A DNA stretch of 24,000 nucleotides from Candidatus Enterococcus murrayae (GCF_017315985.1 NZ_JAFLVR010000012.1:95972-119971); one strand, 5' to 3'; positions 13,473-21,435 are shown, counted from the stretch's first letter. Notes: generated by a model from the sequence alone, not told the origin. Translations and numbers: made by a program.

Positions 13473-13576
13473 TCTATGATTTTAATAAAATTGACAAAAT
13501 TAGTAAAGTAGTTGAATAGACAAGGCAGTAAAAAACATTAATAGAAATCTGTGACCCATTAAAACTATTAGATTTG

Positions 13577-13623
13577 AAACAGAGCTGATTTAGAAAGGAA
13601 ATCTTCTAAATCAGCTCTGTTTT
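13577..13623. terminator. bidirectional rho-independent terminator shared by the dehydrogenase (+) and epimerase (-) genes
   Basis: A perfect 19-bp stem: aaacagagctgatttagaa (13577-13595) pairs with ttctaaatcagctctgttt (13604-13622), with an 8-nt loop. A/T runs at both ends. The right arm overlaps the last codons of the minus-strand gene. Confidence 0.8.
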
Positions 13624-14232
13624 GCTGTTTTCTGTTCTAAATATTTCTCTACCCATGACAAATTTTTCCACACCGATTGTTCGTAGCCGTTGCGCTCTTT
13701 CCATAGTAATATCGCCGTCCACCCAAAGCTCCTGTTTTGGAAATGATTGTCTGGTTTTGCTAATTTTTTCACTCATTTCTTCAATAAACATTTGACCTTG
13801 TCCATCGGGTTCACTGGTCATCAATAAAAGCATGGAGGTTCTTTTAATCAGGTAGGCATATTCTATTAAAGAAGTAGTTGGTAAAAAGGCTAGACCAACC
13901 TTGATATTGTTTTGCTGACAGTAAAAAATCAGTTCAGCGAGATTTTGGCAGGATTCGGCATGAATAAAAACAGTGCAAGGTAAGTAGTCAACAAGCAGTT
14001 TCACGTATTTTTCTGGTTGAGTCACCATTAGATGGATATTAAAGGACATTGTAGTTAAATAACGTAGTTCCTGAATAGTTGCAAGACCAAAAGTAATGTT
14101 ATTAACAAAATTGCCATCCTCAATGTCTAAATGAATTTCTTGAAAACCATTCGCTTCTACTTTTAATAATTCTTTTGCTAAATAGAGTTGTTTCGCAGAA
14201 GCTAAGGATGGTATAATCCTGTTCCTCATCAT
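13606..14232 (-). CDS. ribulose-phosphate 3-epimerase family protein (SgcE/AlsE-like sugar-phosphate epimerase)
   Basis: SD AAGGGGGA. IIPSLASA, HLDIEDGNFVNNITFG (the HxD metal and catalytic motif), NIHLMV and WVDGDI. Its 208 aa fits the family. Divergently transcribed from the PTS operon. Confidence 0.8.
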   Translation of the reverse strand: MMRNRIIPSLASAKQLYLAKELLKVEANGFQEIHLDIEDGNFVNNITFGLATIQELRYLTTMSFNIHLMVTQPEKYVKLLVDYLPCTVFIHAESCQNLAELIFYCQQNNIKVGLAFLPTTSLIEYAYLIKRTSMLLLMTSEPDGQGQMFIEEMSEKISKTRQSFPKQELWVDGDITMERAQRLRTIGVEKFVMGREIFRTENSKTELI

Positions 14233-14329
14233 TACAGTTCCCCCTTTCTCTTCCTACTACCTATGATAATAATTCAAGAAATATTTTTCAGTAGTCAATT
14301 TTTAGAGAAGATTTTCAAATTTCTGCTCA

Positions 14330-14358
14330 TTGTACGATCCACACAGCTAAATTATGCT
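14330..14358 (+). promoter_or_regulatory. candidate promoter of the PRD-regulator/PTS operon
   Basis: TTGTAC (14330-14335), a 17-nt spacer, then TATGCT (14353-14358), about 35 nt upstream of ATG 14394. Pattern match only. Confidence 0.3.
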
Positions 14359-14393
14359 AGTAGTGTAATAAATAACCGAAAGGAGGTAAATCA

Positions 14394-16448
14394 ATGAAAG
14401 CGAATCAGCGTTTATTAGAACTGATCTATTTTTTCGAAACGACTCCCAAAACGTCGATCAAAGATATTGAGTCCCAGTTAAATATTCCAGAAAGTGCCGT
14501 GCGTTATGAAATTGATAATCTGAACTATTATCTTAGAATGATGGAACTACCAGAAATTCAAAAGGAAAATAATGGTCAGCTTATTTCAACTGTAGTGAAT
14601 TTTGAACCTGTAAATCAATTATTAGAAGAAATCTATAGGCCTGATTCGAAAAAAAGACGAGATTATTTAACGTTCAAGTTAGTACTCGCAGGAAAAATCA
14701 ATATTCAAAAGGAATCGATATTTCTAGATGTAACTAGAAATACAGTCAAATCAGATTTAAGGAGTGTCATTCAAGTTCTCGAACGTGAACAAATATACGT
14801 AAAAGAACGGAAAATCATTGCTGGAAACGAATTGGAGATGCGCCGCTTTATTTTGAACCGTTATCGAGAAAATTATTTGGTTCTCTTCTCTGAAAAGGAG
14901 AAACGACTGATCTCTAATCCCATTGAACGAAGAATTCTTGAGGATCTTGAAGATATTGATTTTGGAAAAATGGCGGCTCAAATAAAAGAGTTAGCAAAAA
15001 ACTATCCATTCACTAACTTTTATGAAACATTTTTGCTAAATGTACTAGTGACCATTCATCGTAATCATTATGGTCATTCAATTCAAGAAGTTCAAAACGT
15101 CTCTCAAATTCAAGCACTTGGGGAATATATAGCTATCAGGAAACTCATGCAGAGTATCGGAGGGAGGTATAACTTTTCTGAAAGAGAGATCGCCTATTTG
15201 ACGGAAATTTTAGTCAGTTATAGTGAAGAGTCAATCAATCAGAGTTACCAGAAGAATCTTTTGTCTTTCAAATTATTTGTTTCCAAACTAGTGACTAGTG
15301 TTGGTAAGGAGCTTGGGATGGAATTAACAGAAGATCCTATTCTAATGGAAGGGCTTTATCAACACGTTAAAAGCACGATTTATCGAAAGAACAACTCCTA
15401 TGAGATGGATAGTGAGATTTATCAACAAGCTATTGGGAACTATCAAAGCTTATTTTCGCTTTTAGAAAAAAATATTGAGTTTTATCAGAATGAACTTAAT
15501 GTTCACTTTACAAAAGAAGACATTGCTTTGTTTGTGATTCATTTCTTAGGAGGGATAAGAAGATTTCAAGAAACACATCAGCCTAATTTAAGAGTTTTAC
15601 TCGTATGTCATTCAGGCTATGGAACATCAGTCCTTTTAAAAAATCTGATCGAAAAAAATTATAACGTTGAGGTGGTTGGAACTTCTTCCATCTATCAAAT
15701 CAATGATTACCTTTCTCAAAACATTGATTTGATCGTGAGTACTTTATATTTTTCCTTTGAAATTAAAAAAACAGTAGAAGTTCCCATTCTGTTTATTTCG
15801 CCGTTCTTAACCTTTAATGATGATCAGAAGTTAAAAGAATTTGGAATTACTAGAAAACGGGAAAAAAATAAAATTTCTGTAAATAAATTATTGAAAGTGC
15901 TAGAGCGTCATACCACTATTTCTAATTCCTTAAGTTTGAAAAAGGACTTATTAGCTGCTTTTCCAGAGAATCTACAAGAGGAGCGAAAAGAATCTAGTCT
16001 GTTTGATGGCCTCAAAGATGAAGACATTACTTTCGTTCAAGAAATAGAGGATTGGCAAACGGGATTGTCCATGTGCAGCCAATCGCTGGAACAAAACCAA
16101 GTTGTGAAAAAGAGTTATTTGGAGGGAATATCACAATCCGTTAATTTATATGGTGCCCATTTTGTTATTCGGAATCAAATTGCGATTCCTCACGGCAGTG
16201 AGAAAAGTGGAGTTTTAAAATCAGGTATCCATATTCTTTATGTGAAAAATCCAGTTATTTTTCCAAATGAATTACCAGTAAGACTGATATTCTTTATTGC
16301 TTCGAAAGAAAAAGAGCTATTAATAAATACAGTGATGACTATCAATGCTATTTCTCATGATAAAAAGTTTTATCAAAAATTAGACCACGCAATTGAAAAA
16401 GCAGAATCCTTATCTGATTTCTTCAAAGAGTGGCTCGATGGAGTGTGA
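14394..16448 (+). CDS. PRD-domain transcriptional activator (MtlR/LicR type: HTH, two PRDs, EIIB-Gat-like domain, EIIA-Mtl/Fru-like domain)
   Basis: SD AAAGGAGG. N-terminal winged-helix region, central PRD-like helical region with His-containing segments (VTIHRNHYG, LFVIHFLGG), EIIB-like LRVLLVCHSGYGTSVLL, and a C-terminal EIIA-like domain with IAIPHGS. Confidence 0.85.
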   Translation: MKANQRLLELIYFFETTPKTSIKDIESQLNIPESAVRYEIDNLNYYLRMMELPEIQKENNGQLISTVVNFEPVNQLLEEIYRPDSKKRRDYLTFKLVLAGKINIQKESIFLDVTRNTVKSDLRSVIQVLEREQIYVKERKIIAGNELEMRRFILNRYRENYLVLFSEKEKRLISNPIERRILEDLEDIDFGKMAAQIKELAKNYPFTNFYETFLLNVLVTIHRNHYGHSIQEVQNVSQIQALGEYIAIRKLMQSIGGRYNFSEREIAYLTEILVSYSEESINQSYQKNLLSFKLFVSKLVTSVGKELGMELTEDPILMEGLYQHVKSTIYRKNNSYEMDSEIYQQAIGNYQSLFSLLEKNIEFYQNELNVHFTKEDIALFVIHFLGGIRRFQETHQPNLRVLLVCHSGYGTSVLLKNLIEKNYNVEVVGTSSIYQINDYLSQNIDLIVSTLYFSFEIKKTVEVPILFISPFLTFNDDQKLKEFGITRKREKNKISVNKLLKVLERHTTISNSLSLKKDLLAAFPENLQEERKESSLFDGLKDEDITFVQEIEDWQTGLSMCSQSLEQNQVVKKSYLEGISQSVNLYGAHFVIRNQIAIPHGSEKSGVLKSGIHILYVKNPVIFPNELPVRLIFFIASKEKELLINTVMTINAISHDKKFYQKLDHAIEKAESLSDFFKEWLDGV

Positions 16449-16452
16449 TAAG

Positions 16453-16923
16453 ATGCTTAACCAAGATTTTGTTTATTTTGACGAAGAATACAAATCAGCC
16501 CGGGATTTACTCTCACAAATTGCCAAGGATTTGTATAAAAAAGGCTACGTTAAAGAAACGTATGAACAGTCTATTATTTCTAGAGAAGAGAAGTACCCTA
16601 CAGGTTTGAAGTTAGCAGGCTTGAATATCGCAATCTGTCATACAGAACCTAAAGATGCTGTTAAAAATACCTTGTTTTTAGTAAAACCAGCTCAGCCCGT
16701 ATTTTTTAAGAATGCTGAGACATTAGAAATACTGCCGGTGGATTTGGTCATTGGTTTGGTATTCAGTGATGGGAAAATCCATTTAAAGAATCTTTCTTTT
16801 TTAGCTCAGTTATTTACCAATCAACAATTCATTCAGGAAATTAAGCAGGCGGCTTCAAAGAGAGAACTGATAACGACCTTTTCTCATTTTGCGCAGATAG
16901 GAGGAGAGCAATGGAGCGATTGA
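16453..16923 (+). CDS. PTS EIIA component (PTS_EIIA_2, ascorbate/galactitol/SgcA type)
   Basis: I prefer ATG 16453 (MLNQDFVYF...), 4 nt after the regulator stop, over the overlapping track start at 16393. EEKYPTGL and a NIAICHTE phospho-His context. 156 aa. Confidence 0.8.
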   Translation: MLNQDFVYFDEEYKSARDLLSQIAKDLYKKGYVKETYEQSIISREEKYPTGLKLAGLNIAICHTEPKDAVKNTLFLVKPAQPVFFKNAETLEILPVDLVIGLVFSDGKIHLKNLSFLAQLFTNQQFIQEIKQAASKRELITTFSHFAQIGGEQWSD

Positions 16924-18023
16924 AGCAGTTGATTATGGAATTATCCGATTTACCAGGAAATGTTGGTTACGAAGATCAAGTCATTCAGTATTTGCTAGAC
17001 AGTTTAGGCGAGGAAAAGCAGGTTTCTCTCGATATATTAGGAAACTTGACCGTTCACTTAACGCCAAAAAACATAGGAAAACAAAGAGTTATGCTTTTTG
17101 GACATATGGATGAGGTTGGCATGATGGTCAATCATATCGACAAAAATGGATTTATCTACTGTGAGAAACTGGGTTCATTGAATCCTACTTGCCTTGCAGG
17201 TTTAAAACTCGAGTTACATGGGGAGAAAGGATCAGTCAATGGGGTCGTGGGAGTAAAGTCTCATCATTTGGCAAAACAAAAAGAGGGAAAGATTCCAGAG
17301 AATGCTCGGGACTACTATTTGGATGTTGGGGCTTTAAGTAGGGACGAAGTATTAGATGCAGGGATTGACATAGGTTCTCCGGTCACTTTCAAGCCACAAT
17401 TCTTGCAATTATATGGAAACTGCATCGCAAACAAGGCGATGGATGACCGTGCGTTGTTAGGAATTTTACTCTATTTGACTGAGAATTTAGCCATTGAGAA
17501 ATTGGACGTAGACTTATATCTAGTATTTAGCGTTCAAGAGGAATTCAACACTCGCGGGATTATGCCGACTGTTAGAGAGATTCATCCAGATATTGTTATT
17601 GGTTTAGATGTTACTCCGGCAACTGACACACCGGATTTATCCGGATTATCTGAGATTAAGTTAGGAAAAGGTCCCGCATTAACTTTCATGAATCATCATA
17701 GCCGCGGCACATTAGCAGGCATTGTTCCGAATAAACGATTTTTGACCTATTTAGAAACTATGGGGGAAAGAGCTGGTATACCGATTCAGAGAGAAGTAGC
17801 CACAGGGATTTTGACTGAGACAGCTTATATCGCCATTGAAAATAATCAAACTGTTGTAGCGAATATTTCATTGCCTACTCGATATACACATTCGCCTGTT
17901 GAAGTTATCCATTTGGAAGATGCACTAGGAATTTATCAATTGTTGGCAGAATTTCTACTTTCTTTAGATGGCACTCAAAAGTTTGGAAAAAATAGTGATT
18001 TTGAAAGGAATGATAATAAATGA
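16911..18023 (+). CDS. M42-family metallopeptidase-like protein (SgcX/FrvX type)
   Basis: SD AGGAGGAG. It overlaps the EIIA gene by 13 nt. All M42 metal ligands are present in context: FGHMDEVG, AMDDRAL, SVQEEFNTRG, IGLDVTPA and RYTHSPVE. Confidence 0.85.
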   Translation: MERLKQLIMELSDLPGNVGYEDQVIQYLLDSLGEEKQVSLDILGNLTVHLTPKNIGKQRVMLFGHMDEVGMMVNHIDKNGFIYCEKLGSLNPTCLAGLKLELHGEKGSVNGVVGVKSHHLAKQKEGKIPENARDYYLDVGALSRDEVLDAGIDIGSPVTFKPQFLQLYGNCIANKAMDDRALLGILLYLTENLAIEKLDVDLYLVFSVQEEFNTRGIMPTVREIHPDIVIGLDVTPATDTPDLSGLSEIKLGKGPALTFMNHHSRGTLAGIVPNKRFLTYLETMGERAGIPIQREVATGILTETAYIAIENNQTVVANISLPTRYTHSPVEVIHLEDALGIYQLLAEFLLSLDGTQKFGKNSDFERNDNK

Positions 18024-18295
18024 AAAAAGTGATTGTAGCCTGTGGAACTGGTATGGCGACTTCTTCCATGATCGCGGAGAAAGTCAGACAGGTTCTAGAG
18101 GACAACGAGGTGGAGTACACGCTTTCTCAAGCACAATTAAGTGAGTTAGACATGTACAAAGAAGCAGATTTATTTGTAACGGCGATGCGGATCGAAGAAG
18201 ATTACGGAGTACCGATGGTTGTTGGCACGCCTTTCTTGGTAGGAATCGGGGAAGCTGAAGCAGCTGCGAAGATTATTGAAATTCTAAAAAATTGA
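18020..18295 (+). CDS. PTS EIIB component, galactitol family (GatB/SgcB type)
   Basis: ATGA start/stop overlap with the previous gene. MKKVIVACGTGMATSSM carries the phospho-Cys in the VACG context. 91 aa. Confidence 0.85.
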   Translation: MKKVIVACGTGMATSSMIAEKVRQVLEDNEVEYTLSQAQLSELDMYKEADLFVTAMRIEEDYGVPMVVGTPFLVGIGEAEAAAKIIEILKN

Positions 18296-18315
18296 TTTGA
18301 TAAGGAGGAAGATTG

Positions 18316-19632
18316 ATGGAAGCAATACTCGATTATATTTTATCACTAGGCTCGACAGTATTTGTTCCAATTGTTCTGTTCATTATTGGTCTAATATTTG
18401 GTTTAGGTTTTTTCAAGTCTATCAAATCAGGGATTACTGTAGGTGTTGGATTTATTGGTTTCAATTTAGCAGTTGGACTTATTTCCAGTTTTTTGTCGCC
18501 AGCTGTCAATTTAATTGTGGAGCGATTTGGATTTAATCTAACGGTTATTGACTTAGGATCTGGTGCAGGTGCTGGCGTTGCTTTTTCAACAGTAGTCGGT
18601 GCGTTAATTATCCCAGCGGTTTTCATTTTAAACGTAATCCTTTTGGCTATTGGTGCCACTAAAACGATGAACATTGATATTTTCAATTATTCTCATTACG
18701 CCTTTACTGGAGCAGTCGTCCATACTGTGACAGGAAATTTGGTTTTAGGGATGGGAGTAGCCTTAGTGCAAGCCACATGGTCATTATTATCTGCCGATTA
18801 CACAGCAAAAAGAGTCCAAAATGAGTTAGGAGTTGAAAGTATTTCAATTCCTCAGGGCTATGCAGCAAGCAGTGTTCCGTTATTCGTAATTCTAGATAAG
18901 ATTTACAGTAAAATTCCTTTTCTCCAAAACTCAACTTTGGATATTAAAGGCTTACAGAAAAAAGTCGGATTTATGGGAGATCCAGTGATAATCGGTGGAA
19001 TATTGGGTATCATTTTAAGTTTATTGTCTGGTTATGGCTTTAAAGATGGTGCGAACCTTGTAATGGGTGTCTGCGGAATTATGGTACTGTTTCCGAGAAT
19101 GATCAAAATTATCGTGGAAGGTCTGATGCCTCTATCGGAAGCCGCAAAGGGATTTTTTGCAAAGCATTTCTCTGGAAAAGAAGTATACATCGGACTCGAT
19201 TCCGCAGTTACCTTGGGACATCCTACTACTATGATTATTGGAACAATACTGATTCCTATTACGTTGATACTAGCAGCAATTTTACCAGGAAATCGTGTGT
19301 TGCCTTTAGCTGATTTAGCTTTTGCTGCGTTCTTTATCTGTATGGCGACTATTATCCATAAAGGAAATATCCTAAAAACCTTAATTAGTGGTGTCATTAA
19401 TATGACAGGTATTTTATACATTGCAACATGGATTTCACCTTATTTTACAAAACTAGCGGAAAAAGGCGGCGTGTCAGAATCCGGTGATAAGGTCAGTGCC
19501 TTATGGGCAGGGAATGTCTTTGATTTTGTTATCGCAAACATTGGATTTTTGGGTTATCTTGGCTTGGCCATTTTAATTATAGCAACTTGTTTTATAACGA
19601 TTTTTGTAAAAAGAAATGCTTTAAAAGATTAA
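18316..19632 (+). CDS. PTS EIIC permease, galactitol family (GatC/SgcC type)
   Basis: ATG 18316 lies 7 nt after AAGGAGG (the track used TTG 18313). The N-terminus MEAILDYILSLGSTVFVPIV resembles GatC, and the protein is a polytopic membrane protein of about 438 aa. Confidence 0.85.
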   Translation: MEAILDYILSLGSTVFVPIVLFIIGLIFGLGFFKSIKSGITVGVGFIGFNLAVGLISSFLSPAVNLIVERFGFNLTVIDLGSGAGAGVAFSTVVGALIIPAVFILNVILLAIGATKTMNIDIFNYSHYAFTGAVVHTVTGNLVLGMGVALVQATWSLLSADYTAKRVQNELGVESISIPQGYAASSVPLFVILDKIYSKIPFLQNSTLDIKGLQKKVGFMGDPVIIGGILGIILSLLSGYGFKDGANLVMGVCGIMVLFPRMIKIIVEGLMPLSEAAKGFFAKHFSGKEVYIGLDSAVTLGHPTTMIIGTILIPITLILAAILPGNRVLPLADLAFAAFFICMATIIHKGNILKTLISGVINMTGILYIATWISPYFTKLAEKGGVSESGDKVSALWAGNVFDFVIANIGFLGYLGLAILIIATCFITIFVKRNALKD

Positions 19633-19650
19633 ACATCAGGAGGGAACAAC

Positions 19651-20469
19651 ATGACTTGGTTAAAAGAAAAATTAGGTACAGAAAAGGCAATTATTGCAAT
19701 GTGTCATTTCGATGCGTTGCCGGGGGATCCTCATTTTAATGAGGAAGGTGGTATGGAAAGAGTGATTGAGCATGCCAAAGCTGATTTTTTAGCGCTTCAA
19801 GAAGGCGGCGTTGACGCAGTAATGTTTTCTAATGAGTTTTCTTTACCTTATTTAACAGATGTTCGGACAGAGACAGTAGCCGCAATGGCACGAATCATTG
19901 GAGAGCTGAAACCATTAATTAATATACCATTTGGAGTAAATGTTTTATGGGATGCTAAAAAATCGTTAGACTTAGCAAAAGCCGTGGATGCTGTTTTTGT
20001 AAGAGAGATTTTTACTGGGGTATATGGGTCAGATTTTGGCTTATGGAACACAAATGTCGGAGATACTGTTCGACATCAAAAACAAATTGGCGCTCAAAAC
20101 GTGAAACTTCTTTTTAATATCGTTCCGGAGGCTGCTACTTATCTTGGTGATCGTGACATTACAAGTGTTGCCAAATCAACTGTTTTCAATAATCGTCCAG
20201 ACGCACTTTGTGTCTCAGGTTTGACAGCTGGAACAGAGACAGACGCTAATACTCTAAAGGTTGTCAAAGATGTTGTTCCCAATACTGTTGTTTTCGCCAA
20301 CACTGGTGTCAGACTGAACAATGTTGAAGAACAATTAAAGATCGCTGATGGTGCTGTTGTTGGTACTACGTTTAAGAAAGATGGCGTCTTCGAAAATCAT
20401 GTTGATCAGGCACGTGTGAAGGAATTTATGGATAAGGTCAAAGCGTTTCGTGAGCAGTCCCATTCATGA
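19651..20469 (+). CDS. BtpA/SgcQ-family TIM-barrel protein of unknown function
   Basis: SD AGGAGGG. The AIIAMCHFDALPGDPHF and GGVDAVMFSNEF motifs and the 272-aa length match my recollection of the BtpA/SgcQ family. It sits immediately after EIIC, as sgcQ does in the E. coli sgc cluster. Confidence 0.7.
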   Translation: MTWLKEKLGTEKAIIAMCHFDALPGDPHFNEEGGMERVIEHAKADFLALQEGGVDAVMFSNEFSLPYLTDVRTETVAAMARIIGELKPLINIPFGVNVLWDAKKSLDLAKAVDAVFVREIFTGVYGSDFGLWNTNVGDTVRHQKQIGAQNVKLLFNIVPEAATYLGDRDITSVAKSTVFNNRPDALCVSGLTAGTETDANTLKVVKDVVPNTVVFANTGVRLNNVEEQLKIADGAVVGTTFKKDGVFENHVDQARVKEFMDKVKAFREQSHS

Positions 20470-21137
20470 GCAAACCAACTGTGATCCATCGTTATAAGTT
20501 TGTGATTGATTTTGATGGTACGATTTCAATTAATGATAGTACGACAATGCTGGCTGAAATGTATATTCCTGATCTACATCAGAAATATTTAAGGGAGATT
20601 CGAAATGGAAATATTTCTGTAAGGAAATATATAAAAGAACAATTAGAAGCAATTAGGATTACCAGAGAAGAGTACATTCGTACATTACGAAACGAGATGC
20701 AGATTGACTTGACCTTCAAAAATTTTCTGATAAAGAATTGGGATTTTATGATTGTAAGTGCGGGCACTCTACAAAATGTTTTTTACTCATTAGAAGCAAA
20801 AGGGATAGATATCTCACAAAAACAAATTATTTCAAATCATTTGACTTTCAATGGTGAAGAATTGAAAGTGGAGGCACCGCGCCAATATGATGATCAGGAA
20901 AATGGTATTAATAAGGCTGAAGTCATCAGGAACTATCAGCGACAAGGATATCAAGTTGTTTTTATAGGTGACAGTATTTCAGATTTTGAAGGTGCTAAAG
21001 TTTCGGATATTGTGTATGCCAAAAAGAGCCAGAAATTAGCGAAGTACCTCAAAGCACAAAATATTCCTTTTATTGAGTATCAAAATTTTGACGAAATTGT
21101 TCGTCATTTTCAACGATATTTAGTTGGTATGAAGTAA
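20466..21137 (+). CDS. HAD-superfamily phosphatase (subfamily IB, PSPase/MtnX-like)
   Basis: ATGA overlap with the previous gene. HAD motif I is VIDFDGTIS, motif II is MIVSAGT, and motif III is K...FIGDSISD. Confidence 0.75.
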   Translation: MSKPTVIHRYKFVIDFDGTISINDSTTMLAEMYIPDLHQKYLREIRNGNISVRKYIKEQLEAIRITREEYIRTLRNEMQIDLTFKNFLIKNWDFMIVSAGTLQNVFYSLEAKGIDISQKQIISNHLTFNGEELKVEAPRQYDDQENGINKAEVIRNYQRQGYQVVFIGDSISDFEGAKVSDIVYAKKSQKLAKYLKAQNIPFIEYQNFDEIVRHFQRYLVGMK

Positions 21138-21150
21138 ATGATAGTTCTAT

Positions 21151-21180
21151 AAAATCCAAGCAGCTTCTTTGGATTTTGTA
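21151..21180 (+). terminator. probable terminator of the PTS operon
   Basis: aaaatccaa(g) (21151-21160) pairs with (c)tttggatttt (21167-21177) with one bulge. The stem is AT-rich and its T-run tail is part of the arm. Confidence 0.5.
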
Positions 21181-21435
21181 GGACTATCTTTTTTGGGGGA
21201 ATCTGTATTGAAGACATGCTTTGTTTGACTATGGGATATAAATAGAAGATCGTCTTTAAATGATGAGAGTGCTTATGATTTCAGCCCACTAGTTCGCAGA
21301 TGTTTTTGAATAGCTTTTTGTTGAATCATTACACAAATATTTCTCTCCTAGAGTTTATTTCTTCTTTAATAATTATAGTAAATAAAAAATAGCTACATTC
21401 TATATTGAAAACCCCTGTCACTTCAATTAGAATTT

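Follow-up and report, generated by a model that had tools for sequence, protein, structure and literature searches.

The sgc operon has stood for 30 years amongst the oldest unexplained sugar operons of Escherichia coli, and it is still without an assigned substrate (PMC13343008, PNAS, July 2026). Which compound such an operon takes up, and what its enzymes do to that compound, is the question raised again by a cluster of Candidatus Enterococcus murrayae that lies at 13606-21137 (~7.5 kb) of a 24,000-nucleotide stretch of DNA (GCF_017315985.1, NZ_JAFLVR010000012.1:95972-119971; hereafter the window, with positions counted from its first letter). An earlier note on this DNA had described the cluster as sgc-like, built around a galactitol (Gat)-type phosphotransferase system (PTS). 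Our analysis places it in a known yet unsolved operon family, not new as a kind, and indicates that SgcQ, a peptidase-type hydrolase and a special epimerase make up a conserved unit, the most likely role of which is the processing of a phosphorylated sugar derivative.

Gene layout and translational coupling

The gene set and its coordinates were reproduced by open reading frame (ORF) listing and Pfam/NCBIfam scans, as follows.

13606-14232, minus strand: Rpe-family epimerase, SgcE-type (Pfam/NCBIfam)
14394-16448, plus strand: PRD activator of 684 aa with Mga-HTH, PRD, PTS_IIB and PTS_EIIA_2 domains (Pfam), first gene of the operon
16453-16923, plus strand: stand-alone EIIA (PF00359)
16911-18023, plus strand: M42 protein, SgcX-type (Pfam)
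18020-18295, plus strand: EIIB (PF02302)
18313 or 18316 to 19632, plus strand: EIIC-GAT (PF03611)
19651-20469, plus strand: BtpA/SgcQ (TIGR00259)
20466-21137, plus strand: HAD-IB phosphatase (general HAD-IB model)

Together with direct reading of the sequence, these scans upheld the gene content, coordinates and overlaps of the earlier note with a single correction, the start of EIIC. Two in-frame candidates exist there, TTG at 18313 and ATG at 18316, and the ATG is the more likely start because, sitting 6 nt past GGAGG, it has the better spacing. The translational coupling claimed earlier can be read off the sequence itself: the activator and EIIA genes are separated by a 4-nt gap (TGA-taag-ATG, with the EIIA ATG at 16453), the EIIA and M42 genes share 13 nt (16911-16923) with GGAGGAG preceding the overlap, and ATGA overlaps join M42 to EIIB (18020-18023) and SgcQ to HAD-IB (20466-20469). 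The operon is real and intact, and probably functional.

Orthology to E. coli sgc

Judged by sequence, the block is very probably the orthologue of E. coli sgcXBCQAE. In E. coli K-12 the sgcXBCQAER genes (b4300-b4305, b4565) lie on the KpLE2 island, and the families match one for one: an M42 protein (SgcX), Gat-type EIIB and EIIC, the BtpA-family SgcQ, a PF00359 EIIA and an Rpe paralogue (SgcE). Identity to the E. coli proteins is 71% for SgcQ (268 aa), 54% for SgcC, 44% for SgcB, 41% for SgcX and 39% for SgcE, and the window proteins are nearer to these counterparts than to the paralogues of their own genome (at most 32% for Rpe, 30% for M42 and 40% for EIIC). That genome, of 4.86 Mb, shows an unusual expansion of paralogues, with 17 PF03611 EIIC, seven Rpe-family and seven M42 proteins and a single SgcQ. 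SgcQ scored 337 bits with its model TIGR00259 (cut-off 153) and the EIIC 470 bits with TIGR00827, under the cut-off of 542, whilst the stand-alone EIIA has family PF00359 in common with SgcA and no BLAST match to it.

In a maximum-likelihood tree the window M42 protein and E. coli SgcX fall within one SgcX-type clade of 34 rows (support 100/100), which takes in every M42 protein from SgcQ operons and leaves out the six M42 paralogues of the same genome, FrvX and YpdE. Likewise, the window epimerase and E. coli SgcE share a clade of 22 rows (99/98), and NF005944, a model that E. coli SgcE passes, is the best NCBIfam match of the epimerase. The epimerase fails the housekeeping Rpe equivalogue TIGR01163 (148 against 212.6 bits), and the housekeeping Rpe copy of the genome is likely the one on contig C41. 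Identities, clades and epimerase model thus all bear out the sgc identity proposed earlier, and no orthologous cluster with a defined substrate was found.

A synteny comparison of the kind that the earlier note had suggested, with E. coli sgc and other copies, showed that the gene families correspond and that the internal X-B-C-Q order is common to both organisms, the annotated E. coli order being sgcX-B-C-Q-A-E-R. The Enterococcus unit differs in that a PRD/EIIB/EIIA activator heads the operon, the gene for the stand-alone EIIA precedes that for M42, the epimerase gene diverges from the operon, an extra HAD-IB phosphatase is coupled to SgcQ, and the whole lies outside any prophage-like island, unlike E. 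coli sgc. The replacement of the DeoR-type SgcR, which the earlier note had pointed out, is confirmed by the domains of the activator, namely Mga-HTH (residues 11-61), PRD (298-386), PTS_IIB (400-476) and EIIA_2 (540-671) in Pfam; this regulator is probably MtlR/LicR-like, and it is encoded together with EIIA, EIIB and the Gat-family EIIC.

The phosphatase carries the motifs DFDGT (DxDGT) and GDSISD (GDxxxD), and the general HAD-IB model was the only one passed (58 against a cut-off of 45, NCBIfam). An identity as MtnX (HK-MTPenyl-1-P phosphatase) was rejected, as both specific models scored below cut-off (NF007103, 94 against 292; TIGR01489, 77.4 against 81.55). No other methionine-salvage genes lie nearby. 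Since these scores are sub-cut-off and other loci use unrelated phosphatases, the MtnX-like label was dropped as a clue to methionine-salvage-type chemistry.

Boundaries, mobility and distribution of the unit

Terminator-like hairpins stand at both ends of the unit (13576-13623 and 21141-21187). The first, with a 20-bp stem, lies where the epimerase gene and a D-2-hydroxyacid dehydrogenase gene converge, overlaps the epimerase stop codon and probably acts as a bidirectional terminator. In Enterococcus pallens a single collinear block corresponds to window positions 13639-21097 at 78% nucleotide identity, with unrelated flanks. The divergent epimerase belongs to the unit, since the hairpins bracket it and the E. 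pallens block includes it, and the one collinear block between unrelated flanks argues that the unit moves from epimerase to phosphatase as a single piece. Window SgcQ is 96% identical to the proteins of Enterococcus avium and E. pallens, and a BtpA-family gene was present in 2 of 25 species genomes of the genus and in 29 of 401 genomes of the phylum sample. The cluster is an accessory trait of patchy distribution, a horizontally mobile sgc orthologue in an Enterococcus of the avium/pallens group. A promoter scan performed no better than on shuffled sequence and no promoter is claimed for that reason; no cre site was seen in the promoter region, the three cre matches of the window lying within chance expectation.

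SgcQ operons in other bacteria

We compared 40 BtpA loci from the phylum sample and 80 named loci with SgcQ at 65-96% identity, the latter spanning Bacillota, Chloroflexota, Atribacterota, Spirochaetota, Enterobacterales, Rhizobiaceae and others. Neighbours were labelled by a panel anchored on Pfam/NCBIfam calls and tallied over 85 SgcQ-type operons; the tallies come from simple ORF calling and BLAST labels, and are counts rather than statistics because the genomes are related and contigs often truncated. An FGGY kinase was found in 37 of the 85 and a Gat-type PTS in 19, and the parts are co-inherited with these phosphorylating uptake modules. An M42 protein was present in 32 and an M29 protein in 12, whilst GGT and a PTE-family protein (best NCBIfam model 'phospho-furanose lactonase') occurred in two operons each. 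The Rpe paralogue (19/85) appeared almost only alongside the PTS. NagB/6PGL-like proteins were found in other SgcQ operons, as were the GGT and PTE-family proteins, and one locus joins a ribulokinase (above cut-off), a KpsF-like SIS protein and SgcQ; this locus and the Rpe-type partners of the PTS versions speak for a pentulose phosphate as output. Regulators at related loci were of DeoR, PRD or LevR type, and clustering of the unlabelled ORFs of SgcQ operons gave no further recurrent family.

The hydrolase is integral to SgcQ operons. M42 or M29 was present in all 19 operons of PTS type, and in collinear operons with the order DeoR, substrate-binding protein, ATP-binding cassette (ABC) importer, M42 or M29, FGGY, SgcQ, the two unrelated hydrolase families fill the same slot, with a median identity between M42-type and M29-type operons of 47% for FGGY and 70% for SgcQ. 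The versions with ABC importer and FGGY kinase (for example in Brevibacillus, Paenibacillus and Anaerolineae) share with the window unit both its SgcQ orthogroup (65-88% identity) and its SgcX-type clade of M42 proteins; they have a ribose-type or CUT1 ABC importer and the kinase instead of a PTS, are commonly under DeoR-type control, usually lack the Rpe paralogue and in many cases carry M29 instead of M42.

Phosphatases are a recurrent addition. Four unrelated families were labelled in SgcQ operons, HAD-IB (4/85), HAD-IA (6/85), HAD-IIA (7/85) and IMPase (5/85), 22 instances in all. The HAD phosphatase that the earlier note regarded as added relative to E. coli sgc is a real addition here, coupled to SgcQ, and it is not unique to this locus.

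The same survey bears on a pentitol/polyol substrate, which has been proposed for E. coli sgc (PMC13343008) and in which uptake of a sugar alcohol by the Gat-type PTS would be followed by oxidation and epimerisation of its phosphate, leading into the pentose phosphate pathway. The PTS is indeed of the Gat family, short-chain dehydrogenase/reductase (SDR) genes occur in 13 of the 85 operons (with CUT1 importers), and one variant (L016) has Zn-ADH and SDR genes between those of EIIC and M42. Against it, a dehydrogenase is absent from both the Enterococcus and E. coli clusters, which makes a plain pentitol route less likely, and such a route leaves M42/M29 and SgcQ without a role; we regard it as improbable.

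Several SgcQ loci have neighbours of their own. In four Anaerolineae/Chloroflexota loci (L068, L077, L079, L082) four conserved genes lie just upstream of SgcQ, encoding E2-like (UQ_con)+YukD, JAB, FHA and VWA proteins, and the set looks like a bacterial ubiquitin-like conjugation module. DhaK/DhaL (dihydroxyacetone-kinase-type) pairs stand within or beside SgcQ/M42/FGGY operons at L014, L015, L017 and L058, and at L066 a TIM paralogue, a UPF0047 and a DUF3284 protein are encoded between M42 and SgcQ. Large or unknown flanking ORFs at several loci proved to be unrelated (two-component system, HlyD, Rieske, AFOR, OYE).

SgcQ as a probable enzyme

SgcQ was always the most conserved gene of its operon (71-96% identity against 29-83% for its partners), and its identity stays at 65-96% in comparisons that span Bacillota, Chloroflexota, Atribacterota, Spirochaetota and Pseudomonadota. 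Its AlphaFold (AF2) model is a (beta/alpha)8 barrel (pLDDT 90.3), for which Foldseek returned generic phosphate-binding TIM barrels only, namely PcrB/GGGPS, TrpA, HisF, KDPG aldolase and Rpe (E ~1e-9, TM-score 0.5-0.6, identity 12-18%), whilst a sequence search of the PDB gave no match. Residues H19, D55, N61, E62, Y67, R118, K242 and D244 are invariant across divergent members, as are the loops G190, G219 and G238-T239. In the model all of these fall at the C-terminal strand ends or in the phosphate-binding position at beta7/beta8; the invariant polar residues H19, N61/E62, D101, R118 and E160 sit at the strand ends, and the Gly-rich beta7/beta8 loops are conserved. This pattern fits an enzyme working on a phosphorylated small molecule rather than a membrane-protein chaperone, and SgcQ is likely to be an enzyme that acts on the product of the PTS or kinase.

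In another reading SgcQ would be no enzyme; it would instead help the permease as a BtpA-like factor, for its biogenesis or as a chaperone, and M42 would be a general peptidase carried along. In favour of this are the name of model NF045918, which presents cyanobacterial BtpA as a factor for photosystem I biogenesis, and a mention of 'PTS chaperone-like features' (PMC13343008). We consider this highly improbable: SgcQ fails the photosystem I biogenesis equivalogue (149.7 bits against a cut-off of 400), the 37 FGGY-type operons have ABC importers and no PTS, the modelled fold is a phosphate-binding barrel with invariant polar residues on its catalytic face, and the M42 partner is a dedicated clade co-inherited with SgcQ.

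Hydrolase, epimerase and the aminopeptidase genes of PTS operons

The M42 motifs HMDE, DDR, QEE, LDVT and YTHSP line up with those that hold the metal ligands in the solved M42 peptidases 9qr6 and 4wwv, so that all five metal ligands, reported as intact in the earlier note, are indeed in place together with the catalytic Glu. The protein is predicted to be a catalytically competent dinuclear metallohydrolase of SgcX type. SgcE-type epimerases in the motif listing retain the four Rpe metal ligands (H/D/H/D) and carry substitutions absent from other Rpe paralogues: HxDxED for HxDxMD, T-S-E-P-D for T-V-N-P-G, W-x-DG for E-x-DG and G-R for G-S. In the window epimerase the first cushion Met around the enediolate is Glu, and the phosphate-loop residues differ from those of Rpe.

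Three further PTS operons of the genome, with Lac/Cel-type EIIA/EIIB/EIIC, contain M42 genes (C73:42500-52500, C94:19000-28000 and C29:114000-126500), two of them with an M24 prolidase-like gene and one with a PRD activator, making four PTS operons with M42 genes in one Enterococcus genome. E. coli frvABXR and fryBC-ypdEF-fryA likewise hold aminopeptidase genes (M42, often with M24) inside PTS operons. These two and the three of the same genome differ from the sgc-type unit in that they have other PTS families, no SgcQ or SgcE, and M42 proteins outside the SgcX clade. In the C94 operon, two tandem M42 genes are separated from the EIIC gene by a GRDB-like (glycine reductase B) fragment of 173 aa.

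One possible substrate is an amino-acid-conjugated sugar, in which a sugar or ketosamine bears an aminoacyl, peptidyl or gamma-glutamyl group (for example an Amadori or opine-like product or an aminoacyl sugar). SgcX, or M29 or GGT elsewhere, would be a true aminopeptidase freeing a sugar-amine phosphate, SgcQ would serve as a deglycase or isomerase with a TIM barrel like those of TrpF and HisA, which catalyse Amadori rearrangements, and SgcE would epimerise a cationic ketosamine phosphate. Such a route is consistent with one operon slot filled by two unrelated aminopeptidase folds plus GGT, with NagB-like proteins in operons that lack a peptidase, with M42 (with or without M24) in the three other PTS operons and in frv and fry, with the gain of three acidic residues in the SgcE-type active-site region (Met to Glu, Asn to Glu, Gly to Asp), and with induction of E. 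coli sgc on slow-growth, nitrogen-containing carbon sources (PMC13343008). The induction data are, however, correlative and the acidic residues could equally bind a metal or hydroxyl; no known Amadori deglycase or kinase of the FrlB/FrlD type co-occurs, and plain sugars and polyols are what ribose-type/CUT1 binding proteins and Gat-type PTS permeases are known to handle. On balance we rate an amino-acid-conjugated substrate as unlikely, and give an equally small chance to the bolder proposal that SgcQ, the SgcX-type peptidase and SgcE make up a hitherto undescribed pathway, spread across phyla, that handles nitrogen-containing sugar conjugates, with an aminopeptidase for phosphorylated glyco-amino-acids and SgcQ as a new TIM-barrel deglycase or lyase. 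If true, such a pathway would account for the aminopeptidase genes in many PTS operons (sgc, frv, fry and the four here).

A proposed pathway resembling Ula and Sgb in its logic

In the Ula and Sgb pathways a PTS or FGGY kinase, a metallohydrolase, a phosphate-binding TIM barrel and a 3-epimerase act in turn, leading into the pentose phosphate pathway. We lean towards a comparable series here, in which PTS, hydrolase, SgcQ and 3-epimerase would act on a sugar derivative, maybe one that contains nitrogen or is an acid or lactone. The PTS would import and phosphorylate a carbohydrate derivative, and SgcX would cleave an amide-, ester- or lactone-type bond of the phosphorylated compound. SgcQ may then perform acid-base or metal-enediolate chemistry on the resulting phosphosugar or phospho-sugar acid, be it isomerisation, decarboxylation or a lyase-type reaction, after which SgcE would 3-epimerise a ketose phosphate to a central pentose or hexose phosphate. 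HAD-IB might dephosphorylate a by-product or relieve the build-up of a toxic phospho-intermediate, and the PRD activator would be switched on when transport drains phosphate from its EIIB and EIIA domains.

The likeness to Ula is one of logic, not of membership. Both draw on three Pfam families for their PTS components (PF03611, PF02302 and PF00359), whilst the three enzymes lack homology to their counterparts: M42 stands here in place of the MBL-fold UlaG, a BtpA-family protein in place of the KGPDC enzymes UlaD/SgbH, and an Rpe-type in place of the AP_endonuc_2-type epimerase UlaE/SgbU. The Enterococcus cluster has no 4-epimerase (UlaF/SgbE), and Pfam/NCBIfam scans of the cluster found no member of the UlaG, UlaD KGPDC, UlaE or UlaF families.

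Two groups of loci have sugar-acid-type neighbours. In Priestia megaterium (L007, L008) and Bacillus sp. RC (L070) SgcQ is the last gene after GntR and the GntP permease, with a gluconokinase above cut-off in Priestia, and lies directly downstream of a glucosaminate-type set of amidohydrolase, SelA-like lyase, KDPG-type aldolase and PfkB kinase. At L094:8134-11573 and L111:8142-10816 tandem BtpA paralogues (~39% and 74% identity to window SgcQ) enclose a PTE-family gene; at L094, the one scanned, this gene matches the model 'phospho-furanose lactonase' best and is followed by one for a HAD phosphatase.

If the route followed Ula/Sgb strictly, a phosphorylated aldonolactone or keto-acid would be the product of the PTS or kinase, the hydrolase would open a lactone or lactam ring, SgcQ would form a pentulose 5-phosphate by decarboxylating the phosphate of a beta-keto acid, and SgcE would epimerise this product. 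Such a sugar-acid or lactone route could draw on the three PTS families held in common with Ula and on the pairing of FGGY kinase and barrel, which parallels that of LyxK and SgbH in the E. coli yiaK-S operon. It could also draw on the lactonase-like gene between two BtpA genes at L094, on SgcQ following GntP and gluconokinase beside a glucosaminate-type operon in Priestia and Bacillus, and on the adjoining pentulose-phosphate enzymes (Rpe, KpsF-like SIS protein and ribulokinase). Points to the contrary are that lactonase activity is not known for M42 or M29, that KGPDC/HPS structures were not among the best 50 Foldseek matches of SgcQ, which we take to lack the KGPDC motif set, and that many operons carry SDR dehydrogenases and CUT1 importers, typical of neutral sugars and polyols. 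We do not expect this strict form to hold, although as substrate classes an amine- or amino-acid-bearing sugar and a sugar acid or lactone fit about equally well.

Several points weigh against the Ula-like series that we favour. Its specific step order and chemistry, drawn by analogy, are tentative. The chemistry of SgcQ is unreadable from its fold because there is no solved relative and the best TM-score is 0.5-0.6. Besides the nature of the tallies, 12 FGGY-type operons are without any hydrolase in the operon as called, and the activator has a single PRD above the Pfam threshold, where the MtlR/LicR type has two. M42 and M29 are genuine families of aminopeptidases, for which a lactonase-type role would to our knowledge be unprecedented, and amino-acid conjugates are rarely bound by ribose-type binding proteins. 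Literature searches turned up no functional study in which SgcQ, SgcX or SgcE is given a reaction or a substrate, in agreement with the earlier statement that sgc has no assigned substrate, and none was found on BtpA with PTS and epimerase, PF03437/COG0434, BtpA with FGGY, M42 with a galactitol PTS, frvX/ypdE or phospho-furanose lactonase. Lastly, E. coli ΔsgcC and ΔsgcX Keio strains were without defect on 190 Biolog carbon sources (PMC13343008).

Significance

The conservation of SgcQ at 65-96% identity over several phyla suggests a widespread, unrecognised substrate. The Enterococcus copy offers handles that are absent from E. coli: its transport-coupled PRD activator and compact divergent promoter are usable as an inducer reporter, and deletion of the coupled phosphatase could trap intermediates. 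The ABC-type SgcQ operons, for their part, make soluble binding proteins available for ligand screening. Any one of these systems, once solved, would allow thousands of genes to be annotated and might explain the aminopeptidase genes in PTS operons, and the Enterococcus unit is useful here as a tractable second model of sgc.

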